Below the pieces are notes generated by a model, which was not told where the DNA came from, searched no databases, and saw only the letters and a program-made list of their open reading frames with translations. A DNA stretch of 32,000 nucleotides from Cohaesibacter marisflavi (lineage in GTDB: Bacteria; Pseudomonadota; Alphaproteobacteria; Rhizobiales; Cohaesibacteraceae): positions 501,727 to 533,726 of the forward strand of contig NZ_FOVR01000001.1 in NCBI RefSeq assembly GCF_900115225.1, given 5' to 3'. Shown here in pieces: positions 9,341-29,003 of this stretch. Numbering within the stretch: the first letter of the stretch is position 1; each line of letters opens with the position of its first letter. A program made the position numbers and the translations under genes.

Positions 9341-9767
9341 ACGAGACCAGATCATAGAATGCGCGCGGGGCTGGCTGGGCACGCCTTACCACCATCAAGC
9401 CAGCGTCAAGGGCGTTGGCTGTGATTGCCTTGGATTGGTGCGGGGTGTTTGGCGCGGGCTTTACGGCTTTGAGGCTGCAAATATTCCGGCCTATTCGCCA
9501 GATTGGGGCGATGCCACCAATGCAGAAAGCTTGCTATCTGCGGGGCGAACCTATTTGCAGGAAATCGCCCTTGATGAGATGGGGCCGGGGGATGTGTTTG
9601 CGATCCGTTGGCGCGGGGCTAAGAGCGCCAAACATCTCGGCATCCTGACCGGTGAAACGCGATTTATCCACGCCTATGAAAAATGTGGTGTTGTCGAGGT
9701 GAGCTTATCCCCTCACTGGCGGCGGATGATTGCCGCTGCTTTCCGCTTTCCCAATCTGGAGGTTTGA
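9327..9767 (+). CDS. NlpC/P60-family phage cell-wall peptidase (RcGTA g14 equivalent)
   Basis: W.GTPY.HQ......G.DC.GLV (catalytic Cys context) and a downstream H.GI motif are present. ATG at 9327; GTG at 9300 is an alternative start. Confidence 0.75.
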   Translation: MTNIKRDQIIECARGWLGTPYHHQASVKGVGCDCLGLVRGVWRGLYGFEAANIPAYSPDWGDATNAESLLSAGRTYLQEIALDEMGPGDVFAIRWRGAKSAKHLGILTGETRFIHAYEKCGVVEVSLSPHWRRMIAAAFRFPNLEV

Positions 9768-9769
9768 AC

Positions 9770-12700
9770 ATGTCAACACTGGTTTTGTCAAAGGTCGGCA
9801 CGGTGCTTGGCGGGGCCTTGTTGGGGCCAATCGGGGCAATGATCGGCGGCACGATTGGCGCGCTTGGTGGGGCCGTTATCGACAATATGCTTTTGGCCGG
9901 TGGCAAGGATACCCACACGCAAGGGCCGCGTCTTGATAGCCTGGAGGTGACCAGCTCGACAGAAGGCACCGCGATCAACAGAGCTTACGGGCGGGCGCGC
10001 ATTGGCGGACAAGTGATCTGGGCAACCACCTTGGAAGAGGTCGCCACCACCACCAAACAGGGCGGCAAGGGCGGCGGGGCAAAAGCCAAGACAACCAGTT
10101 ACACATATTACGCAAATTTTGCGGTTGGCATTTGCGAAGGGCCGGGGGTCTATCTCAACCGGATCTTTGCGGATGGGACAGAAATCGACATGTCAAAAAT
10201 TGACTTTCGCTTTTACGATGGCAGCGAAAGCCAAGAACCTGACAGCCTGATTGAAAGCGTGGAAGGCGACGGGCTGGCGCCTGCCTATCGCGGGCTTTGC
10301 TATATTGTCTTTGACCGGCTGGAGCTGACCGACTACGGAAGCCGCATTCCGCAATTCACCTTTGAAATTATCCGGCCAGCACCGACACGCCAGCTTGAGA
10401 GCGCCATTTGTGGGGTCAATCTCATTCCGGGGTCAACCGAATTTGGCTATGAGCCGGATGTGATGCTCAAGCAAGAGCTGTCATCAAGTGGCGCGGTGAT
10501 CGGGCAAGAATACGAAAATGTGCATCAGAAACAGGGCGCGTCTGATTTGTCCGTTTCTCTTGATCAACTTGCAACCGTGATGCCGAATATCAAAAGCGTT
10601 TGCCTTGTGGTGGCTTGGTTTTTTGATGATTTGCGCTGTGGTGGCTGCAGCATCCGGCCAAAAGTGGAAATCAGCACCAAGGCAACATCGCCCTATAACT
10701 GGCAGGTTGCGGGCCTGACGCGAGACACAGCGCTTTTAATCACGCAAATGACTGATGATGATGGCAATGATTATCCCGTTTATGGGGGCACGCCTTCAGA
10801 CAAAGCTGTCATTCATGCCATTACCGAGCTGAAAGCGCGCGGCTATGATGTCATGCTTTACCCGTTCATTATGGGCGATATCCCGCAAGGCAACGGCCTT
10901 GCCGATCCTTGGGGCGGGGAAGAGCAAGCCACCTTCCCATGGCGTGGCCGGATCACTTGCCACCCGGCAGCAGGGCAGACCGGAAGCCCGGACCAGACCA
11001 GCACGGCGGGCGATCAGGTGAGCGCCTTTCTAGGCTCGGCGGCTGTGGCTGATTTTTCCATTTCAGATGAAACAATCGCCTATACCGGCGCGGATGAGTG
11101 GAGCTATCGGCGCTTTGTTCTGCATCTGGCCAATCTGGCCAAAGCGGCGGACGGTGTGGCGTCAATCTGCATCGGTTCGGAAATGGTCGGGCTAACCACG
11201 GTGCGCGATGAAGCCACAAGCTATCCCTTTGTAACCGGCCTTAAAGCCTTGGCTGTTGATGTGCGGGCGATCCTTGGGGAAACGGTAAAAATCGGCTATG
11301 CGGCGGACTGGTCAGAATATCACAGCCACAGGCCGGGGGATGGCTCGGGCGATGTGATTTTCAACATGGACCCGCTGTGGTCTGATGATGATATTGATTT
11401 CATTGGAATTGATAATTATTTCCCTCTGTCTGATTGGCGGCGGGGCAGGGACCATCTTGATTATGATCAGGACGCGGGGCATGTGACGCCATACAGCCTT
11501 GATTATCTCAAGGCCAACATCGAGGGCGGGGAATATTATGATTTCTACTATGCGGACGATGCGGCGCGTGTGGCGCAAGAGCGTACAGCGATCAGCGACG
11601 GGACGCATGGGGAAGACTGGATTTACCGCCAGAAAGATTTAAAAAACTGGTGGCTCAATAGCCATTATAACAGGCCGGGCGGTGTGCGTGATAGCGCGGC
11701 AACAGGCTGGACGCCAGAAAGTAAACCAATCTGGTTTACCGAGTTGGGATGCCCGGCGCTTGATCTGGGCAGCAATCAGCCCAATGTGTTTTTTGATCCC
11801 AAATCCAGTGAGAGCGCCTTGCCCTATTTTTCCAGCGGCGCGCGCGATGATGTGCAACAGCACAGCCATTTAAGGGCAACGCTCGACTATTGGGCCGATG
11901 ATGCCAACAATCCGGCCTCAAGCCTTTATGACGGTTCCATGATCGATATGGACGCTGTGCATGTGTGGAGCTGGGACGCGCGTCCATTCCCCTCCTGGCC
12001 ATTGGATGGGGCAAGCTGGGCGGATGCGGACAACTGGCAATATGGGCATTGGCTATCTTCTCGGGTGGGCATGGTCTACATGCCCGACCTGATGCGTCAT
12101 ATCTCCGAGGAATACGGCTTTACCGCCTATGATTTTGATGCGGCTTATGGGGCCTGCGATGGCTATGTGATCGATAGCACCATGAGCTTACGCAGTGCTT
12201 GGCAACCTCTGGAACTGGCTTTCGGCTTTGACTTGATCGAAACGGGCGGCATCATCAAGGCGGTTTCCCGAAAGGCCATTCCCCTTTGTGCGGATGTTGA
12301 TCAAGAGCGCTTACAGGATACGAACGGCGAGAGCGGTGGCGAGCTGGTCACGCTCACACGGGCGCAAGAAAGTGAACTCGCACGCGGCGTGCGCATTACC
12401 TATCTCAATGCGAACAAGGCTTACAATTCCGGCACAGTGACCGCTTGGAATAATTTTACAGGCGCAACGAATGTGTCTGAAAGTCAGCTTGCTATTGTCA
12501 TGGATGAGGACAGGGCGCAAGGCGTGGCTGAGTATCTTTTGCAAGATGCTTGGGCCGCGCGGGAAACCGGACAATTTGCGCTTATGCCTTCCCTGCTGGC
12601 CTTGGAACCGGGCGACGTTCTGGAAGTGACCACGCAAAAGGGTGCGCGGGAATTGCGCTTGACCGATGTAAAGGACGGGGAAGGGCGCACATGTGAGGCA

Positions 12701-13714
12701 AGCGGATTTATTGATGCCGGCTTGTCTGTTTCCGGTGCGCGCTATTCCTTGCGTTTCAGTCGGGCCAGCGCGGGACTTTCGCGCATTTTGGCGCGCTTTA
12801 TGGATTTGCCGTTGCTCCAGCCGGATAATGACCCGAATGCGGGCTATGTGGCTCTTTCTGCCAAGCGTTGGCCGGGGGCGGGGCTGGTGTTGCGCTCGAC
12901 CAATGAAAGCAGTTGGCAAACGAATATTGAATTTACCCATTCGGCCATCATTGGCGAAACCCTAAACGCCTTGGACAAAGGGCCGCTTTATGTCTTTGAC
13001 CGGGGCAATGCGCTGGAAATCGAGATTTATAGTGGCTCGTTGCTGTCTGTCTCTGAAGAGGAATTATTCTCTGGCAGCAACGCCTTTGCCATCGAAACAA
13101 GTGCGGGCGTTTGGGAAATCATCCAAGCGCAAACTGTGGAGCTGATCGGCTCAAAACGTTATCGCCTGACGGACCTTTTGCGCGGGCAGCTCGGCACAGA
13201 AAACGCTATGCTGGAAAGTGTCGCGGCCGGGGCGGCGCTGGTCTATCTTGATCAGGGCGTTGCGCAAGCAGACATGGGCCTATCTGATATCGGCATTAGC
13301 TATTATTGGCGCTATGGACCGGAAGGCGAAACGGTTGGCTCGGATCTCTTCACAACCGAGCAACACGCCTTTAGCGGGCGGGCGCTCAAGCCCTATGCGC
13401 CAGTGCATGCCCGATGGGCAAGCGATGAGGCGGGCGATCATACCATTACCTGGATCAGACGGACGCGGCTGGATGGCGACGGGTGGGAGCTTTATCAAGT
13501 GCCTCTGGGGGAAGAGCTGGAGGCCTATGAAGTCGATATCATAAGCGGCGGCGATGTGGTGCGCACCATCGAGACGAGCACGCCAGAAGCCAGCTATAGC
13601 GCCACACAAAGACAGACCGATCTAGGCAGCGCAACGGCTGGCTATGAGGTGGCAATCTATCAAATCAGTCAAACAATAGGGCGCGGGGATGCGCTGAAGG
13701 TGGGGTGGGGGTGA
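9770..13714 (+). CDS. Host-specificity / baseplate 'megatron' protein (RcGTA g15-like; glycoside-hydrolase-like TIM-barrel region plus phage tail domain)
   Basis: 1,314 aa. ATG at 9770 follows GGAGG at 9758-9762. The Gly-rich hydrophobic N-terminus (GGALLGPIGAMIGGTIGALGG) is typical of the family. It is the last gene of the conserved tail block. Confidence 0.85.
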   Translation: MSTLVLSKVGTVLGGALLGPIGAMIGGTIGALGGAVIDNMLLAGGKDTHTQGPRLDSLEVTSSTEGTAINRAYGRARIGGQVIWATTLEEVATTTKQGGKGGGAKAKTTSYTYYANFAVGICEGPGVYLNRIFADGTEIDMSKIDFRFYDGSESQEPDSLIESVEGDGLAPAYRGLCYIVFDRLELTDYGSRIPQFTFEIIRPAPTRQLESAICGVNLIPGSTEFGYEPDVMLKQELSSSGAVIGQEYENVHQKQGASDLSVSLDQLATVMPNIKSVCLVVAWFFDDLRCGGCSIRPKVEISTKATSPYNWQVAGLTRDTALLITQMTDDDGNDYPVYGGTPSDKAVIHAITELKARGYDVMLYPFIMGDIPQGNGLADPWGGEEQATFPWRGRITCHPAAGQTGSPDQTSTAGDQVSAFLGSAAVADFSISDETIAYTGADEWSYRRFVLHLANLAKAADGVASICIGSEMVGLTTVRDEATSYPFVTGLKALAVDVRAILGETVKIGYAADWSEYHSHRPGDGSGDVIFNMDPLWSDDDIDFIGIDNYFPLSDWRRGRDHLDYDQDAGHVTPYSLDYLKANIEGGEYYDFYYADDAARVAQERTAISDGTHGEDWIYRQKDLKNWWLNSHYNRPGGVRDSAATGWTPESKPIWFTELGCPALDLGSNQPNVFFDPKSSESALPYFSSGARDDVQQHSHLRATLDYWADDANNPASSLYDGSMIDMDAVHVWSWDARPFPSWPLDGASWADADNWQYGHWLSSRVGMVYMPDLMRHISEEYGFTAYDFDAAYGACDGYVIDSTMSLRSAWQPLELAFGFDLIETGGIIKAVSRKAIPLCADVDQERLQDTNGESGGELVTLTRAQESELARGVRITYLNANKAYNSGTVTAWNNFTGATNVSESQLAIVMDEDRAQGVAEYLLQDAWAARETGQFALMPSLLALEPGDVLEVTTQKGARELRLTDVKDGEGRTCEASGFIDAGLSVSGARYSLRFSRASAGLSRILARFMDLPLLQPDNDPNAGYVALSAKRWPGAGLVLRSTNESSWQTNIEFTHSAIIGETLNALDKGPLYVFDRGNALEIEIYSGSLLSVSEEELFSGSNAFAIETSAGVWEIIQAQTVELIGSKRYRLTDLLRGQLGTENAMLESVAAGAALVYLDQGVAQADMGLSDIGISYYWRYGPEGETVGSDLFTTEQHAFSGRALKPYAPVHARWASDEAGDHTITWIRRTRLDGDGWELYQVPLGEELEAYEVDIISGGDVVRTIETSTPEASYSATQRQTDLGSATAGYEVAIYQISQTIGRGDALKVGWG

Positions 13715-13892
13715 TTGTGCGTCTGGGCTTGGCAACTTTTAGCTAAAATGAAGGAGCACTGGCACACGCAATAAAAGGTGACCGGTAATCGAGACCGATA
13801 GGCGACATTCGACTGTTCTGGGGTGGCTCTGACGAGCTTGCCAAAAGCAGCTGTTCGCACGAGACGCAGCATTGGTCTCTCATTAAACCGCT

Positions 13893-14330
13893 TTAAGATG
13901 AAACAGCCTTGTCAGAGACAATGCGCTCCAGAGCGTTATATGCGTCCTGAGCAACATCGACCCTAAGATGGCATTTGGCTGAAGAAGTAACGTCAACGGG
14001 AGGGCTGATGTCTGCAAGCTTTAAGACCTGCCTGAGATGGGGGCCGGATAGAGGAATATAATCGAATTGCTCTCCAGAAAATCGATTATATATGCGGCCA
14101 ATAAACCACTTGCTCCGCCTCTTTGCTTGTTTTGCTGAAAACAATCGAAAATGAAGAACCCCTAAGAGTTCCTGATCATCCAAGGGGGCGGCATCAGCAG
14201 CTTTGCTAAATGCTGAGAATGCAGGCGACATTCCCGCTGTTACCGCGTCTGAGAAACCCCGAGACGTCGCGCTCTGCTCTTCACTGATCCGAATGATCGG
14301 TTGCGTATTCATTGCACTGCCCAGAACCAA
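13893..14330 (-). CDS. Hypothetical protein (145 aa from TTG at 14330; 139 aa from ATG at 14312)
   Basis: The ORF lies 12 nt downstream of the 79-aa gene on the same strand. No domain recognised. Confidence 0.45.
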   Translation of the reverse strand: MVLGSAMNTQPIIRISEEQSATSRGFSDAVTAGMSPAFSAFSKAADAAPLDDQELLGVLHFRLFSAKQAKRRSKWFIGRIYNRFSGEQFDYIPLSGPHLRQVLKLADISPPVDVTSSAKCHLRVDVAQDAYNALERIVSDKAVSS

Positions 14331-14342
14331 TGAAATCCATAT

Positions 14343-14582
14343 TCACCAAACAGCGAATAATACAACAATCAGGACAACCCATGGGATTAGTCCCAACCAT
14401 CCTGCCATAGTCGCGTCACACAAATATCGGCTGTTTTTTGAGCTCTTGAAGCCAAGCCAATTATATCTCTTTTCTTCAGACGATATTGGTTCGACAGAAA
14501 TGTAGCCAAATGACACAATGGGCAGCAGAATTCTCGCAGTTGAGTATCCAACGGCTTCAAGTAGAACATCATAAACAAACAT
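14343..14582 (-). CDS. Small hydrophobic / membrane protein (79 aa)
   Basis: ATG at 14582 is preceded on the minus strand by AGGAGA with about 7 nt spacing. The C-terminal segment GWLGLIPWVVLIVVLFAVW looks transmembrane. Confidence 0.55.
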   Translation of the reverse strand: MFVYDVLLEAVGYSTARILLPIVSFGYISVEPISSEEKRYNWLGFKSSKNSRYLCDATMAGWLGLIPWVVLIVVLFAVW

Positions 14583-14800
14583 AGGAACTCTCCTGCTTGC
14601 TGGGACGATACACCAATAGAGGTTATTTGAAAATGGTGCATCCGACTGGGATCAACAAACGGGGCCAACAGATTCGGTCCGAAGCAGTCCTCGGTCGTTC
14701 TATAGCCTGTTGTATAGCAGAACGCGCGATTGGACATTCGTTGACCGCCCAAGGACGGAGTTACAGAGTTCGACACAGCTATGTGTGAGTATGGAGATCA

Positions 14801-15277
14801 ATGATGAAACTAGAAGAGTACTATAGACCTCGCTTGTCCGAGGCTGGCTACGATCTTTTGGCTGTTTTCAGCAGGTTTGAATACGCACTGAAGAAGGGCG
14901 GGTTTCGCCGAGAAAACTACCCTGACGCAGCCTGGCCAACATTTGCAAACCGTCTTCCCGATCCGTTTTTTCAAAAGATGCGAGAGGCTTCGGAAGCCCA
15001 AATCTTTTTTGAAGCGCCGCCAGATCATCTCGTAACCACGGCTGACGGGGGTGTAGCCTGGTCAGGAGCACCAATTACACCAAACGACGCGGCCAGCCTC
15101 TTTAAAAGCATCAAGACTGCACGCAACAACCTGTTTCATGGGGATAAGAAACACGACAACGACCGAGATACCCGGCTAATGAAAGCGGCATTGTTTGTGC
15201 TGAACGAAGCCTACCAAGAAGCGGAAGTAAATGAAGGGTTTGATAGTTTTGTAAGCGCCATGGAGTTTGGTCTTTAG
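14801..15277 (+). CDS. Hypothetical protein with a HEPN-like Rx4H motif (TARNNLFHG)
   Basis: 158 aa with GGAG at 14793-14796 upstream (ATG at 14801 or 14804). It has a single R-N-N-L-F-H-G motif in a predicted helical C-terminal half. Convergent with the TIR gene. Confidence 0.5.
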   Translation: MMKLEEYYRPRLSEAGYDLLAVFSRFEYALKKGGFRRENYPDAAWPTFANRLPDPFFQKMREASEAQIFFEAPPDHLVTTADGGVAWSGAPITPNDAASLFKSIKTARNNLFHGDKKHDNDRDTRLMKAALFVLNEAYQEAEVNEGFDSFVSAMEFGL

Positions 15278-15364
15278 CATATCGGCCCTATCCTGCCGTT
15301 CGATTGATCAGGGGGGGGGCTCCGACGCGTTTCCCGAAAGCTGCCGTAAAAGCTCAAAGCTACT

Positions 15365-16567
15365 TTAGTCGTTGGAGGTCCGTTGTAAGAAGACTACCCC
15401 TTGTTGATCGTCAGGGAGCCCCACTGACCCAAAATCCCCTATTTCCAAGCTAGTTTCAGAAAATGAGATATTAGATCGGTAAATGCTAAACATCGAAGAG
15501 CGATCATCACGAGGTCGATTGTTTCGCACCTCACATCTTTCGAAAGAAACATCACTCTTTTTTATTATAAACGCATCAAAGCAGAAATTGTCATAAAACT
15601 CTACTTCTACCAATTTCAAAGAAGATGTCTCTATCGCTCTAAATACGCCATATGAGCACTTGTAGATATCGCAGTTCTGAAATCGAACGAATTGGCTATT
15701 CTCAATTTCAAAACCATAGGTTCCACATCCGAAGATTTTGCAATTATCGACACATATTGAAGAGCAATGCTTGAAGTTTAACACAGCACCTTTACACTCC
15801 CCTCCCTTCGGCCAGTGACCAAGGGCTGTGCCTTCTATTGTGACACCATGGCAATCTTCAAAACTCATCGTAGTTGCATAGGTGGGTTCAACGGTTATAC
15901 GAGCATCACTGCTTCCCTTAATTGTTAGATTGTTTACGCCTCTAAATACCAGTTCCTCTCCGTCGAACACCTCTCGAGCAAACACGTGATGATTATCAGG
16001 AACTTCAATCCCAGAAAGAGAAAAGCTCCTTCGAACGTAGATACTTGTATTTGAGCCTATGCAACTCAGGAACTCATCTGCCGAATAGACGTCTACTTTA
16101 CGATGATCAATCGCTCCTACCTCTCGCCCTTCGAGCGACGAGATATGGGTGACTAGCTCAGAGAAGTTGGCCTGAAAGCAGTCTATGTACTGATACTGAG
16201 CAAACGAAATGCCATCAACACGAGTTTTCGGTATTTGGCATTCCTCAATTCTCACCGGCAATACAAACGTTTTTCCAGCAGGAACAAGCGCCAGCCTTGC
16301 TAGCGCTTGCCGAAATTCTGATTGTACATATCCGACTTTCTGCACAGAGATTTCAGAGAACAAAGGTAAAAAGTATTTTGATGTTCGGATAACATCGCGA
16401 AGCCGGTCTTCCCACAATTCCCCTGGCTTCAGTCCTTCAAGTTTGTACGGAGAAGGAGGTTTGTCCATCCACGGACTTAATCCTGCCTCGCGCAACCTTC
16501 GATACAAAGCTTGTGCTTGTAGCAAGTCTTCACTTGCGTATGATATAAAGCAAATTGGGTCTGTCAT
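15365..16567 (-). CDS. TIR-domain protein fused to a right-handed parallel beta-helix repeat region
   Basis: The N-terminus has ICFISYASED..A..L...L...G...WMD...L.PGE.W...L...I..S.YFLPLFS......GYVQSEF (TIR core with a candidate catalytic Glu). The C-terminal ~200 aa have periodic ~22-aa units (NLTIKG, CHGVTIEG, ICVDNCKIFGC, VRFQNCDIYKC, VSFERCEVRNN). ATG at 16567; TTG at 16576 is an alternative start. Confidence 0.75.
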   Translation of the reverse strand: MTDPICFISYASEDLLQAQALYRRLREAGLSPWMDKPPSPYKLEGLKPGELWEDRLRDVIRTSKYFLPLFSEISVQKVGYVQSEFRQALARLALVPAGKTFVLPVRIEECQIPKTRVDGISFAQYQYIDCFQANFSELVTHISSLEGREVGAIDHRKVDVYSADEFLSCIGSNTSIYVRRSFSLSGIEVPDNHHVFAREVFDGEELVFRGVNNLTIKGSSDARITVEPTYATTMSFEDCHGVTIEGTALGHWPKGGECKGAVLNFKHCSSICVDNCKIFGCGTYGFEIENSQFVRFQNCDIYKCSYGVFRAIETSSLKLVEVEFYDNFCFDAFIIKKSDVSFERCEVRNNRPRDDRSSMFSIYRSNISFSETSLEIGDFGSVGLPDDQQGVVFLQRTSND

Positions 16568-16926
16568 AGTATCCAATACAATATCAAATTATTAGAACTT
16601 GCAATTGCATTACGTCGCACATACTTCAAAAAATAACAACCAAAAGAGTTGCGGATATGCCGCCTCTAAAACTCGAAATAATCAGCTTTTTAATACCCAA
16701 TTTGGACACGAAGCGAATTAGTGCGTCGCAGCATTTGTTAAAGCAGCTCTTTCAGCATAGAGATTGGAATTCGCTGCCCAAAGCCGGGATTCGCCAGAGA
16801 TGACTTTCAAGAATCCTGCGTCCCCATTCCTAACATTCGATTAAAGCAGGACATATTGAAAAGATATGTGACGGAGTATGGTGGATGTGTTAGGCTGGAG
16901 CAGCTCAAAAGATAAAGAGAAAATCA

Positions 16927-17520
16927 ATGGCGAGTATAATAAGCACTATTACTATTGCTGTTATTGGGGTTTTCCTGACTGCATGGTTTAATCACATTCA
17001 TTGGTTAAACAAAAATAGAGAAGAAATAAGAATTAGAGAAACTATTGAAGCAACTTCTTTAGTTAGAGATATTGCAAATATCTTTGACAAAAGAATTGTT
17101 ACTCAGAGGCTAATGCTGAGAAATATATTTTTGGAAAACAGGGAGGTTATGCTAGAAGAATACAAAAAATCTCTGAGAGAATATAGCGAAAGATATAACG
17201 AAGTTAGATTTAGACTGCGATATTTTTCAAGTTACAGTTATGTGATAGACTTTGAAAGAGAGCTAAACGACAAAATTGTTGAAAATTCATACGAAATTGA
17301 GCATATATTAAAGTACGGTAGACCAAAAAAACTAAAATTTTCAGAATTAAACGAGCAATTAAATATTATTTCAGTAAGAGTGTATGAGTACTGCGCGCTG
17401 TTAACTTCAGATATTTCTTCTGAAAATATTGGTGTCTTAAAAAAAATAAATGATTGGAAGGATCCAAATAACAAGTATATAAGTTCTTTGTTTTTAATTA
17501 AAAGACTTCTTTCTTTGTAA
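16927..17520 (+). CDS. Hypothetical N-terminally anchored membrane protein (197 aa), very AT-rich
   Basis: It has one N-terminal TM segment (IISTITIAVIGVFLTAWF) followed by a charged helical region. The 3' end overlaps the convergent GT51-like gene by 23 nt. Confidence 0.5.
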   Translation: MASIISTITIAVIGVFLTAWFNHIHWLNKNREEIRIRETIEATSLVRDIANIFDKRIVTQRLMLRNIFLENREVMLEEYKKSLREYSERYNEVRFRLRYFSSYSYVIDFERELNDKIVENSYEIEHILKYGRPKKLKFSELNEQLNIISVRVYEYCALLTSDISSENIGVLKKINDWKDPNNKYISSLFLIKRLLSL

Positions 17521-18193
17521 GACGAAGAGATGCAAGATAGTCCATTCTTTTGTGAACCCGGCTTGTCCACCAAGGATTGGAAGATTGGAATAATTGAAGA
17601 ATTTCTTCTGGACTTGAAAATACATCGCGATCACTTACCGAGTAATATATATTGGGAGGCAACGGGTAGGGCAAAAGACTCGCAATAAAAGCACTTTGTT
17701 CAGGCGTGAGGTTGGAGGGGGCCGTATCAAATAGAAATTTTGAAGCTTTAATGATACCGTGCATGTTTGGCCCAAAATATGCAGAATTTATGTAAGCAAG
17801 TAGTATTTCCTCTTTTGAACGATGTAAATTTATAATAGCCGCAAAAATTATTTCGCGAATTTTTCGAGATACAGTTCTTTCCCTTCGTCCTGTGCAGGTT
17901 CTAACCAATAGTTGCTCTATGGTGCTGGTTCCGCCGAATTTTCCATAAGTAATGTATCGTTTTAGGCCTCGAGGTAGAGAGCGTAGTTCAAATCCTAGAT
18001 GCAGAAAATACCGCCGATCTTCGAGAAGAAGGATATCATGGATTTGTTCTGGTATGATTTTATCTTCTTCGGAAAGAAAAAAAGAAGAATCTACAGAATA
18101 ATATTGATCAATCCAATTTAATAGTTCATCAAGGTCAACATTAAGACGAATCAGTAACTTTTTAAGGCTTAAATTATTTCGCGTTTTGGTCAT
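17498..18193 (-). CDS. GT51 (peptidoglycan glycosyltransferase / transglycosylase)-like protein lacking a membrane anchor
   Basis: GT51 motifs occur in order: EDRRYFLHLG (EDxxFxxHxG), GGTSTIEQL (GGSTITQQ-like), RKIRE (RKxxE), EILLAYINSAYFG and LTPEQSAFIASLLPYP. No hydrophobic N-terminal segment in the first 60 aa. Confidence 0.65.
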   Translation of the reverse strand: MTKTRNNLSLKKLLIRLNVDLDELLNWIDQYYSVDSSFFLSEEDKIIPEQIHDILLLEDRRYFLHLGFELRSLPRGLKRYITYGKFGGTSTIEQLLVRTCTGRRERTVSRKIREIIFAAIINLHRSKEEILLAYINSAYFGPNMHGIIKASKFLFDTAPSNLTPEQSAFIASLLPYPLPPNIYYSVSDRDVFSSPEEILQLFQSSNPWWTSRVHKRMDYLASLRLTKKEVF

Positions 18194-18690
18194 TTTTCAA
18201 AATCAAACTTCGTTAAATATTCTACACCTGTCAAAGAACATTAGGCTTATCAAAACCACCCTTCCTAATTGTTTCCCTTGAAGGTATTCATGATATCACG
18301 CAAATCTTATGTTGTTGCACATATTTGAGCAAACACTATTGAGCTCTGTTGTAAAAAAGTCGCAAGGAATTTCATTAAAACACGTTGGGCGAAATGGTCC
18401 CGAAAAACAAGACAAAGCACAAACGTCGGCTATGAAATGATGTTGGTTTTGACATTAGCGGTAGCACAATTAGGAAACAAATTTACCATTTGAGGCCAAG
18501 TAAATTTGCAACAGAGTCCGATTGGCCGCTTCCGCCTGCGGCATTAGAGATCTCGCACCAGCGTAAGATAATCGCTTTCCGCCCCTTTTGCAAAACAACC
18601 TTCTGAAGGCTCGAATTTCTACTCATATCGAAAGCTCGCATGCAGTCAGATCGTGATCTCTCTTAACTCTCACTTTTCAACCACCACAAT

Positions 18691-18736: not shown

Positions 18737-19723
18737 ATGTCGGCTACAGCGCTCTTGGCTTTGCCCTATATTGCAGCCAATCAGAATCAGAAACACGTGA
18801 CCCATAATGAAGCCTTGCGGATGTTGGATGCGCTTGTGCAGCTATCCGTATTGGATCGCGATTTGACAGCGCCACCCGATACGCCAAGCGATGGCGCGCG
18901 TTATATCGTGGCTGATGGGGCAACTGATGCATGGGCCGGATGGGATGGCAGCGTTGCCGCTTATCAAGATGGGGCGTGGGTTGAATTTGTGCCTTTGCCG
19001 GGGTGGCTGGCCTGGGTATCCGATGAAAGCAAACTCCTTTGCTATGATGGGGCTGACTGGGTTGATTTCCTTTCTGCTGGCCTTGGTACGGCTTTGGGGA
19101 ACGGCTCTTTTGACAAGATCGGGGTGAACGCCTCGGCAGACGCAACCAACCGCCTAGCGCTTTCCTCGGCGGCTAGTCTTTTCAATCACGCTGGAAACGG
19201 CCATCAAATCAAGGTCAATAAAGCGGCGGGGGCTGACACAAACAGCCTGTTGTTCCAAACCAATTGGTCTGGCCGCGCTGAAATGGGCTGCGCGGGCAAT
19301 GATGATTGGTCCATCAAAGTGAGCGCGGACGGGACAAGCTGGCTTACGGCTCTTTCTATCGATAGCGCAACCGGCCTTTTGAAAGGCCTTAATTGGGTTG
19401 GTGATGTTGTCGACGGTGGGCTAGGGGCTGTCATTGAAAGCGGAAGTAACGCAAACGGAACCTATGTTCGTTTTGCTGATGGATTGCAAATCTGCACGTC
19501 TTTGGTGACGTCCAGTGACAGCACTTATGTCATTTGGACCTATCCGGCTGAATTCTATGGTGCGGCTGAAAATGTGATGATGACAGCGCGGGGCTTGACG
19601 CCTTATCACGCGCAGCCCAACGGCTCGGGCTCAACGGCAACCATTGCCGTGAATTGTTGGGATCTGAGTGGCACGCGCGTTGAAACTGACATTACCGTTT
19701 TTGCAATTGGGCGTTGGAAATAG
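18737..19723 (+). CDS. DUF2793-like phage/GTA tail-fibre or spike-like protein, copy 1
   Basis: The N-terminal LPYI...Q.QKHVTHNEAL..LD.LVQL.V.DRDL..PP motif and Y.DG.W.F.P..GW pattern are present. It follows the tail genes. Its paralogue is at 28017-29003. Confidence 0.75.
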   Translation: MSATALLALPYIAANQNQKHVTHNEALRMLDALVQLSVLDRDLTAPPDTPSDGARYIVADGATDAWAGWDGSVAAYQDGAWVEFVPLPGWLAWVSDESKLLCYDGADWVDFLSAGLGTALGNGSFDKIGVNASADATNRLALSSAASLFNHAGNGHQIKVNKAAGADTNSLLFQTNWSGRAEMGCAGNDDWSIKVSADGTSWLTALSIDSATGLLKGLNWVGDVVDGGLGAVIESGSNANGTYVRFADGLQICTSLVTSSDSTYVIWTYPAEFYGAAENVMMTARGLTPYHAQPNGSGSTATIAVNCWDLSGTRVETDITVFAIGRWK

Positions 19724-22634: not shown

Positions 22635-22708
22635 TGGCTGGGGATCCTGGACTCGAACCAGGACCGACGGAGTCAGAGTCCGCTGTTCTACCATTAAACT
22701 AATCCCCA
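22635..22708 (-). tRNA. tRNA-Gln (anticodon CUG), 74 nt with encoded CCA
   Basis: The reverse complement folds as a cloverleaf: acceptor TGGGGAT/ATCCCCA, anticodon stem GCGGA/TCCGT, loop CTCTGAC, T-arm CCTGG-TTCGAGT-CCAGG, discriminator G, then CCA. Confidence 0.9.
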
Positions 22709-28016: not shown

Positions 28017-29003
28017 ATGGAGCAGACAACAAACCTAGCCTTGCCCTATATCGTGGGCAATCAGAACCAGAAGCACATCACCCACAACGAAGCTCTGCGG
28101 ATGCTGGATGCGCTCGTGCAGCTCTCTGTCGCTGATCGGGATCTCTCGGCACCGCCAGATGCGCCCACCAATGGTGTACGCTATATCGTAGCGGATGGTG
28201 CCAGTGATGCATGGACCGGATGGGAGGGCAGCATCGCAGCCTATCTGGATGGGGCGTGGGCCGAACTGCAACCGCTGGCTGGCTGGCTGGCATGGCTCGA
28301 GGATGAGAACAGACTGCTCTGCTTTGACGGAGCGTCTTGGTCCGATTTCATCTCTGCTGGCTTAGGCAGTGCCTTGACGAACGGATCTTTCGACAAAATA
28401 GGGGTCAACGCCACCGCAGATGCGACAAACAGGCTTGCGCTTTCAGCAGGCGCCAGCCTGTTCAACCATGCTGGAAATGGTCATCAGATCAAGGTCAACA
28501 AGGCGGCTGCCAGCGATACAAACAGTTTGCTGTTCCAGACCAACTGGTCCGGACGCGCAGAAATGGGCTGTGCGGGCGATGATGACTGGTCCGTCAAGGT
28601 CAGTGCCGATGGCAGCAACTGGACAACGGCATTGCAGGTTGATGCAAGCAACGGGCTGCTGGCTGCTGCCAATTGGGTCGGCAACGTCTCCAATGGAGGG
28701 CTGGGGGCGGTCCTTGAAAGCGGTAGCAACGCGAACGGAACCTATGTGCGCTTTGCTGATGGCCTGCAGATTTGCACGTCGCTGGTCACGTCAAGCGATA
28801 GCACCTTTATCATCTGGACCTATCCGGCTGAATTTTCAGGCGCTGCGGAAAATGTCATGATGACGGCGCGCGGTCTTACACCCTATCATGCCCAGCCTAA
28901 CGGATCCGGGTCTGCCTCAACCATTGCGGTGAATTGCTGGGACCTCAATGGCAGTCGCGCCGAAACTGACATCACGGTTTTTGCAATCGGGCGCTGGAGG
29001 TAA
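28017..29003 (+). CDS. DUF2793-like tail-fibre or spike-like protein, copy 2 (orphan locus among core genes)
   Basis: Same length (328 aa) as copy 1. It aligns gaplessly with about 63 mismatches counted by eye (about 80% aa identity). Confidence 0.75.
   Translation: MEQTTNLALPYIVGNQNQKHITHNEALRMLDALVQLSVADRDLSAPPDAPTNGVRYIVADGASDAWTGWEGSIAAYLDGAWAELQPLAGWLAWLEDENRLLCFDGASWSDFISAGLGSALTNGSFDKIGVNATADATNRLALSAGASLFNHAGNGHQIKVNKAAASDTNSLLFQTNWSGRAEMGCAGDDDWSVKVSADGSNWTTALQVDASNGLLAAANWVGNVSNGGLGAVLESGSNANGTYVRFADGLQICTSLVTSSDSTFIIWTYPAEFSGAAENVMMTARGLTPYHAQPNGSGSASTIAVNCWDLNGSRAETDITVFAIGRWR

Follow-up and report, generated by a model that had tools for sequence, protein, structure and literature searches.

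A TIR–beta-helix fusion gene carried as cargo between the tail genes of an RcGTA-like cluster in Cohaesibacter marisflavi: a candidate single-chain anti-phage protein

The 32,000-nucleotide stretch of the Cohaesibacter marisflavi genome analysed here (the window) contains, on the minus strand at positions 15365 to 16567, a gene for a protein of 400 amino acids (aa) in which an N-terminal TIR domain is joined by a short linker to a C-terminal right-handed beta-helix. We lean towards reading this TIR–beta-helix protein as a single-chain sensor–effector anti-phage protein that depletes NAD+ once activated. Its architecture, in which a TIR effector is combined with a new sensor fold but no switch domain, is undescribed. 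The gene itself is a mobile cargo gene (a 'moron') and not a virion part, although it lies between the genes of a phage-like tail module. The parts of the gene to which the text refers are the following:

15365..16567, minus strand: TIR–beta-helix gene, 400 aa plus stop, ATG at 16565-16567 (from the list of open reading frames (ORFs), coordinates checked)
16148..16567, minus strand: TIR domain, aa 1-140 (Pfam TIR_2, Foldseek)
16316..16318, minus strand: codon of Glu84, the predicted catalytic glutamate, in a YxxxE replacing WxxxE (family and PDB alignments)
16103..16147, minus strand: variable linker, aa 141-155, a peak of column entropy with 44% mean identity (secondary structure from the model)
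15368..16102, minus strand: right-handed beta-helix module, aa 156-400 (Pfam, AlphaFold2, Foldseek)
15656..15820, minus strand: signature core of the module with G250-H251, C258, G280-C281-G282 and C304 (codons checked)

The TIR–beta-helix gene is a real, intact ORF. Reading from the first in-frame TTG (16574-16576) would give an alternative form of 403 aa (15365..16576, minus strand). The 400-aa ATG start is favoured because this form matches a Cohaesibacter marisflavi protein at NCBI with 100% identity, a protein annotated solely as 'Right handed beta helix region', and because the homologues all begin at the equivalent Met. The gene is flanked by plus-strand tail genes, and scans for promoters and terminators gave nothing better than shuffled sequence. 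No signal peptide or transmembrane (TM) segment was found in the 400-aa protein (maximal KD19 hydropathy 1.23, no hydrophobic segment) and no recognisable secretion domain either; the protein is predicted to be soluble and cytoplasmic.

The TIR domain begins at residue 4 of the protein. It was recognised by Pfam TIR_2 (PF13676) over aa 10-136 of the 403-aa form, with an E-value of 1.8e-18 and 67.6 bits against a curated cut-off of 28. An initial annotation of the window had picked out the motifs ICFISYASED, WMD, GE.W, YFLPLFS and GYVQSEF as TIR hallmarks, and every one of them was found in the domain. In the AlphaFold2 model the first 145 residues show the order of elements typical of a TIR fold (beta-A/alpha-A/beta-B/alpha-B/beta-C/alpha-C). 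Foldseek against the PDB matched the N-terminal part to the TIR-APAZ proteins of SPARTA (8i87, 8ffi, 8spo) and to AbTir (7uxu), with probability 1.00.

The same annotation had placed a glutamate at the position expected for the NADase catalytic residue, and the alignments agree with this. Glu84, within GYVQSEF, is invariant in an alignment of the 19 family members. Searched by itself against the PDB sequences, the window TIR domain returned only noise. The comparison with TIR domains in the PDB was reached through a related TIR protein, P0023, together with a MAFFT alignment. P0023 (GFVQAE) aligns here with PdTIR 3h16 (WPQKEL), 7uxr (WTEYEL) and a TLR TIR (WCQYEL), and in the MAFFT alignment of six TIRs Glu84 falls in the invariant WxxxE-Glu column of PdTIR, 7uxr and TLR. 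The glutamate of the C-helix WxxxE motif is needed for the NADase activity of bacterial TIR domains, as for E208 of AbTir (PMC11374754). Judged by eye from the alignments, S140, D167 and R215 of AbTir correspond to Ser9, Asp35 and Arg91. The BB-loop region carries a conserved 7-residue insertion specific to the family (MDKPPxPYxxxGLKPGE) when aligned with the PDB TIRs. Thus the domain keeps the catalytic glutamate together with the other positions relevant to NADase activity, and it is predicted to belong to the enzymatic class. Among known defence TIRs its nearest relatives are the NAD+-depleting ones (SPARTA TIR-APAZ, TIR-SAVED, AbTir) rather than Thoeris ThsB: PADLOC gave weak matches to the TIR part only, with pAgo-associated Aga_TIR (9.7e-7) and SAVED_TIR (4.8e-6), and no ThsB model matched at E≤0.1.

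The beta-helix is a defined module. Pfam Beta_helix (PF13229) matched aa 265-371 with an E-value of 3.4e-9 and 36.9 bits (cut-off 25.9), and the AlphaFold2 model, built from the 19-member alignment (mean predicted local distance difference test (pLDDT) 84, predicted template modelling score (pTM) 0.80), consists of the TIR domain, a short linker and a multi-rung beta-helix. Over most of aa 161-380 the pLDDT reaches about 90 or more, whereas it is lower in the TIR domain (51-88). The module starts with an N-terminal cap (VxVxSAxEFL…FDGEE), and the rungs that come after it are each about 23 residues long. Three Cys ladders run along it (C239/C268, C276/C299 and C258/C281/C304), which bears out the regular, Cys-rich repeats of about 22 residues seen initially, with a period nearer to 23. 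The invariant C258, C281 and C304 are exactly 23 residues apart, that is, one rung; owing to this spacing they most likely form an internal structural ladder rather than a metal site. A fusion of TIR and beta-helix on the antisense strand between tail genes, as first proposed, is thus intact as an ORF, and the check by Pfam, AlphaFold and Foldseek suggested at that time gave both Pfam domains above their cut-offs and both folds in the model.

Matches of the module to proteins of known function remained generic. For the C-terminal part, Foldseek against the PDB found pectate and pectin lyases, polysaccharide lyases and tailspikes, with 5gt5 as the best match (E 4.2e-5) and identities of 8-14%. 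Matches to depolymerases and tailspikes were sub-threshold or generic (K1 depolymerase 9k4a at E 3e-6 with the family profile, a PHROG tail spike at 2e-5), Glyco_hydro_28 was seen below its cut-off and in one homologue only, and no CAZy-type Pfam family was above cut-off for the module. Identity within the family falls off along the chain, with a mean pairwise value of 75% in the TIR domain, 62% in the helix core, 42% in the C-terminal rungs and 36% in the tail, the protein being at its most variable in the C-terminal rungs. Such a gradient, from a conserved effector to a distal surface that diverges, is in keeping with a sensor role for the beta-helix.

The relatives of the module are informative in this respect. 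With the C-terminal 251 aa as query, phmmer found 2258 representative clusters at E≤1e-3 and 246 at E≤1e-30, the best E-values going down to 1e-92 for multi-copy proteins. Named homologues come from Oscillospiraceae, Ruminiclostridium and Eubacterium, and one is encoded by a Clostridium plasmid. A common type has a lipoprotein-type signal (consensus LLxGCG) and two to four tandem modules, many bear SLH or Cu_amine_oxidN1 surface-anchor domains, and 10 of 70 are fused to Peptidase_M56 (BlaR1-type), with the module behind a membrane transducer. The N-cap is recognisable across families as VxVxxxxEFLxAI…DGxE, and an invariant signature (EPRYA, G-H, GxCxGxV, GCG, CSxG) occurs both in the TIR fusions and in their secreted relatives; these positions do not vary among the 70 secreted or M56-fused homologues, nor in a cross-family alignment. 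On these grounds the beta-helix is assigned to a family of cell-surface modules with a GH…GCG signature. Homologues such as P0020, P0021, P0024 and P0037 have signal or TM segments, unlike the TIR–beta-helix protein, in which neither the export signal nor the surface anchor typical of the module family was found. Since it has no hydrophobic segment, an extracellular module would here have been recruited into a cytoplasmic protein.

In BlaR1 and MecR1 a penicillin-binding sensor domain sits on a membrane transducer. The module stands in place of this sensor domain in the M56 proteins, a position that provides the best indirect support for a ligand-sensing role and, by analogy, suggests that the beta-helix module is a ligand sensor. 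As an observation in its own right, in P0024 and nine other M56 transducers two to four beta-helix copies form the extracellular part instead of the penicillin-binding sensor; no paper on M56–beta-helix sensors was found in the literature, and from their sequences these transducers appear to be an undescribed sensor class.

The family with the full architecture is very small. A search of 5.8 billion proteins recovered TIR plus beta-helix in 19 clusters only, with 38-72% identity. The clusters named by source are all from marine Alphaproteobacteria (Roseobacter, Sulfitobacter, Salipiger and Limimaricola), and two further members map to a Cohaesibacter metagenome-assembled genome (MAG) and a Paracoccaceae MAG. 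Just two GTDB species representatives have a homologue, and a scan of genome contigs gave two loci, both already in the set. No homologue was detected in a scan of IMG/VR or by tblastn of 50,697 phage records, a plasmid tblastn gave no full-length homologue, and a search with the TIR domain only returned three short proteins and no diversity of architecture. Four members (624 aa) have a conserved extra C-terminal extension of ~225 aa with one TM-like segment (aa 487-512) and no Pfam or PADLOC match; in two of them (L001 10001-11875 and L005 10001-11875) the same LprI-domain gene and 276-aa gene follow. Single domains also occur. P0027 (242 aa) is a beta-helix module alone, 46% identical and beginning exactly at the module boundary, and P0208 (154 aa; L020 4442-4906) is a TIR domain alone, 73% identical. 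Both lie on short contigs, and a split, a truncation or an artefact of assembly may explain them.

The loci of the homologues were as follows:

L001, Sulfitobacter: island at tRNA-Ser(CGA), with an integrase beside the tRNA, and resolvase, transposase and HNH genes
L002, Limimaricola: island at tRNA-Ser(CGA), with PARIS (AriA/AriB) 3 kb away
L003, Cohaesibacter MAG: 487 bp from tRNA-Met, at the end of an integrase/AlpA/PrimPol element
L005, uncultured Roseobacter: ParDE, DNA methyltransferase and resolvase
L017, Salipiger: convergent with a KAP NTPase gene, integrase nearby
L018, metagenome contig: resolvase
L004, Paracoccaceae MAG: no mobile or defence hallmark

The homologues are solitary cargo in strain-variable islands associated with tRNA genes or recombinases. 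When all proteins of the window island were compared by tblastn with the seven homologous loci, the TIR–beta-helix gene alone was recovered; as nothing else is shared between them, it is a stand-alone cargo gene without a conserved partner. A defence role is plausible given this pattern of solitary island cargo, which in one case has PARIS 3 kb away and in another lies next to a KAP NTPase. The survey of homologue neighbourhoods that had been suggested at the outset yielded mobile or defence genes at several of the eight loci inspected, although not at L004 and not as an enrichment statistic. Two of these islands also share their surroundings. The tRNA-Ser(CGA) gene at L001 15401-15490 and L002 18413-18502 lies upstream of DUF2059-rplU-rpmA with different cargo in each, which looks like an integration hotspot shared by two genera.

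The position of the gene in the window leads to the same picture of mobile cargo. The window comprises an RcGTA-like (gene transfer agent-like) head–tail cluster with portal, S78 protease, capsid, connector and tail-completion proteins and tape measure, continued by DUF2460, gp84_N/BR0599, NlpC/P60, a 1343-aa g15-like protein, a DUF2793 gene and a CHAP peptidase. We take the host cluster to be an RcGTA-like cluster or a defective prophage. The TIR–beta-helix gene lies in an insertion between two of its genes:

9683..13714, plus strand: g15-like host-specificity protein, the left flank (Pfam GTA_TIM, Phage-tail_3 and Rcc01698_C; 85% identical to its L009 homologue)
13715..18671, both strands: low-GC cargo island of ~5 kb with the TIR–beta-helix gene and about five other ORFs
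18737..19723, plus strand: DUF2793 tail-fibre-like protein, the right flank (Pfam DUF2793, E 6.6e-35; PHROG tail-fibre families)

The GC content drops from about 0.55 in the flanks to 0.34-0.50 between the g15 stop (13714) and the DUF2793 ATG (18737); gene by gene it is 0.436 for TIR–beta-helix, 0.291 for the neighbouring orf197, 0.375 for a GT51-like gene and 0.557 for g15. In the closest relative found, IMGVR_UViG_2833556347_000002 (L009), the DNA homology ends at the g15 stop and returns 65 bp before the DUF2793 ATG. The space is occupied there by a different cargo of 2.2 kb (L009 11234-13413, GC 0.35) that encodes a 452-aa protein without Pfam or PADLOC match and a NUDIX hydrolase. In four more distant IMG/VR contigs the g15–DUF2793 gap measures just 37-127 bp and holds no cargo. 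The GC drop, the different cargo of L009 and the empty junction in the four contigs together establish 13715-18671 as an insertion at a cargo-exchange hotspot, and the TIR–beta-helix gene as no part of the tail machinery. The initial placement 'within a phage tail module' was thus right as to the antisense position between tail genes, while the gene sits in a 5-kb low-GC insertion outside the tail operon. No direct repeats were prominent at the ends of the island. When the conserved sequence of the right flank was scanned for as an exact pattern, no match was obtained, so that no further variants of the hotspot were collected, and such negatives need caution as the 22-nt right flank common to the window and L009 was missed by the IMG/VR pattern scan even though L009 is in IMG/VR.

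It had also been suggested that the protein falls outside the characterised TIR systems and has no ThsA-like partner, and both points are supported. PADLOC and Pfam detected no ThsA, SAVED, pAgo or STAND partner in any neighbouring ORF, PADLOC and NCBIfam gave no system-level match, and in the literature that could be searched we found no paper on TIR plus beta-helix in bacterial defence. A search for the partner or domain that defines each of Thoeris, SPARTA, CBASS and TIR-STAND found none of them, and the protein is therefore not a member of any of these systems. It resembles SPARTA TIR-APAZ, CBASS TIR-SAVED and AbTir in its TIR_2-type domain, in the catalytic Glu and as its best profile and structural matches, and the mechanism expected to be shared is an NAD+ hydrolysis activated by oligomerisation. 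However, it differs from all three by the Tyr in place of the WxxxE Trp and by the 7-residue BB-loop insertion, and it has no APAZ, SAVED, pAgo or CD-NTase, the fused beta-helix taking the place of guide RNA or cyclic nucleotide sensing. The SPARTA Aga_TIR profile was aligned over its TIR part only (positions 6-137 of 430) and no pAgo occurs in the island; the CBASS SAVED_TIR match spans aa 3-39 only and there is no CD-NTase nearby. With Thoeris ThsB the protein would have in common a TIR in defence-type islands and the same, here predicted, catalytic chemistry on NAD+, but no ThsA or other effector partner, ThsB profile match, conserved operon or SIR2, SLOG or Macro domain is present at the locus. 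The TIR-STAND proteins (Avs/TIR-NLR, plant TNLs) likewise combine an N-terminal TIR effector and a C-terminal repeat-type sensor in one chain; in contrast to them, the TIR–beta-helix protein lacks a central NTPase switch, has a linker of ~15 residues and a beta-helix instead of LRR, TPR or WD40 repeats.

Outside the TIR systems, the Firmicute surface and M56 proteins are alike in the C-terminal 250 aa, the N-cap and the GH…C.G.V…GCG…CS.G signature. They are secreted, lipid-, SLH- or CuAO-N1-anchored or membrane-embedded and often have two to four modules, whereas the window protein has a single module, a TIR domain and a predicted cytoplasmic location. Tailspikes, depolymerases and pectate lyases share with it only the generic right-handed parallel beta-helix fold, at the 8-14% identity given above; compared with tailspikes, the TIR–beta-helix protein has a short helix, one per chain, with no particle-binding domain and no phage-encoded homologues. 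The nearest analogue for the way in which the protein might work is Swarozyc, a one-protein DUF4062 TIR-like NADase that is activated by the phage portal and causes NAD+ depletion and abortive infection (bioRxiv 10.64898/2026.05.01.722283). It sets a precedent for a phage structural protein as trigger, but its catalytic domain is DUF4062 and not TIR_2, and it has no beta-helix.

A mechanism along these lines would start with the binding of an infection-derived cue by the beta-helix module. The cue might be a structural protein of the phage or else a polymer, either glycan-like or derived from the envelope. Binding would cause self-association of the protein, comparable to the oligomerisation in SPARTA, AbTir filaments and Swarozyc with the phage portal, and the TIR domains brought together in this way might hydrolyse NAD+ as active oligomers. 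Depletion of NAD+ could finally stop the infected cell, by abortive infection or exclusion. More specifically, and more tentatively, the protein may be a cytoplasmic pattern-recognition receptor, in which a co-opted Firmicute-type surface module, probably glycan-binding, senses a phage structural protein or an envelope or glycan molecule and fires the TIR NADase without an NTPase switch or partner, and which rides a hitherto unnoticed cargo-exchange hotspot in an RcGTA-like tail module, the phage-like element thereby arming its host. If true, this would be the first immune sensor on a pectate-lyase fold. The defence or exclusion candidate with a sensory beta-helix put forward at the beginning is hence plausible from the island contexts and the M56 relatives, while the tailspike-like alternative offered along with it is not retained (see below).

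Several observations weigh against an NADase-based defence protein. The Trp of the WxxxE motif is Tyr80 here and Tyr or Phe in the family, and the AlphaFold2 model is poorest at residues 80-85, around Glu84, where the pLDDT falls below 50. As far as the sequence goes, the TIR domain can also be one that makes signalling nucleotides. The invariant His and Cys of the module might point to a catalytic or metal-binding function instead of a sensory one. Every other member of the module family is extracellular, and a cytoplasmic ligand for the module is purely inferred. No PADLOC family matches the whole protein. Finally, the contexts amount to n=8 loci with no defence-enrichment statistic, and L004 shows no hallmark of mobility or defence.

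Bacterial TIR proteins with host-directed roles exist, and it is a minor possibility that the protein is not anti-phage at all but serves an interaction with other bacteria or a host, in the manner of Tcp or PdTIR, or an NAD+-linked regulation or addiction of the mobile element, with the beta-helix as an adhesin-like or enzymatic domain. Such a role would agree with PdTIR (3h16) being among the sequence matches of the TIR clade, with the marine Alphaproteobacteria that make up all named family members, and with the surface location of the module homologues. However, a protein without signal peptide, TM segment or recognisable secretion domain is poorly suited to it, and the family is patchy, occurs in strain-variable islands together with recombinases, toxin–antitoxin modules and defence genes, and has no conserved partner.

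Scarcely different in weight, if slightly less probable still, is a Thoeris-like signal generator, in which the beta-helix would sense, the TIR would make a signal of the cyclic ADP-ribose type or histidine-ADP-ribose and an unrecognised effector would kill. The same catalytic Glu serves TIRs of the ThsB type, and some 30 types of effector have now been tied to TIR signalling (bioRxiv 10.64898/2025.12.03.692087). The window even offers a candidate for the effector in the protein with an N-terminal TM segment at 16927-17520 (orf197), a membrane protein divergently transcribed 359 bp upstream. Yet no neighbour is kept across the seven homologous loci, the GC content of orf197 (0.29 compared to 0.44 for the TIR gene) indicates a separate origin, no ThsB or ThsA match was obtained with PADLOC, and the closest TIRs are NAD+-depleting effectors.

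We consider it improbable that the enzymatic activity lies in the beta-helix, be it as a glycan lyase or hydrolase or as a Cys/His- or metal-dependent catalyst, with the TIR domain as scaffold or regulator. The fold does match pectate lyases, depolymerases and NosD-like proteins, and the G-H, the three Cys and the GCG are invariant from Alphaproteobacteria to Firmicutes. But an exact 23-residue spacing of the Cys is what is expected of a structural ladder, the structural matches are weak (best E 4e-5, 8-14% identity) with no CAZy-type Pfam family above cut-off, and the TIR is the most conserved part of the protein and retains the catalytic Glu. The tailspike or virion-protein reading, a tailspike-like structural or receptor-binding part of a GTA or prophage particle with an NAD-consuming domain, is rejected as highly improbable, for although the gene lies between g15 and the tail-fibre gene and gives weak sequence and fold matches to tailspikes and depolymerases, it is low-GC foreign cargo (0.44 versus 0.55) on the opposite strand, in an insertion swapped for unrelated cargo in L009 and missing in four other contigs, with no homologue in the 50,697 phage records or IMG/VR and all homologues in non-phage-structural contexts, and its product has a beta-helix of the Firmicute surface/M56 module family and, the TIR starting at residue 4, no N-terminal particle-attachment domain.

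Fusions of TIR to variable domains are already familiar, and the TIR–beta-helix family is very small. The latest systematic survey of TIR and Thoeris proteins explicitly left out standalone TIR proteins such as this one. If functional, the protein preferred here as a sensor–effector would add a new sensor fold to bacterial immunity, provide a compact 400-aa system for ligand-induced TIR activation, and give a first functional handle on a beta-helix module family with >2000 representative clusters. Moreover, as the g15/DUF2793 junction holds different cargo in close relatives, our data suggest that GTA-like or prophage tail modules of Alphaproteobacteria hold exchangeable slots for accessory genes.

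The remaining ORFs of the island are a mixed set. Convergent with the TIR gene is a 158-aa ORF (14801-15277, plus strand) with a sub-threshold match to HEPN_Apea (E 0.031) and an Rx4H motif (RNNLFH). It also matches PHROG 19013 (E 3.7e-12), a family of unknown function, is not co-conserved with the TIR gene and, from its sequence, may be an independent defence or toxin gene of the HEPN RNase type. At 17498-18193 (minus strand) a 231-aa protein represents a stand-alone GT51-type peptidoglycan glycosyltransferase domain (Pfam Transgly, E 1.3e-31). The motifs EDxxFxxHxG, GGxSTxxQ and RKxxE are present by eye, but, unusually for an enzyme of this class, a TM anchor is missing. Its gene overlaps tail-to-tail by 23 bp with orf197 (16927-17520, plus strand; 197 aa with an N-terminal TM segment), the two forming a very AT-rich sub-island (GC 0.29-0.375). 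The HEPN-like, TM and GT51-like neighbours were ruled out as components of a common system, since tblastn of the homologous loci showed no co-conservation. Two further ORFs without family match encode 145 aa (13893-14330, minus strand) and 79 aa with a C-terminal TM segment (14343-14582, minus strand).

Beyond the phage-like cluster the window carries a second DUF2793 paralogue (28017-29003, plus strand; 328 aa, E 1.3e-32), about 6 kb past its end and among host genes for Ppx/GppA, an FtsJ-like methyltransferase and ferrochelatase. About 0.8 kb after the last phage-like gene lies a tRNA-Gln(CTG) gene (22635-22708, minus strand). It is a possible attachment site, in which case the cluster would be a defective prophage and not a vertically inherited GTA.

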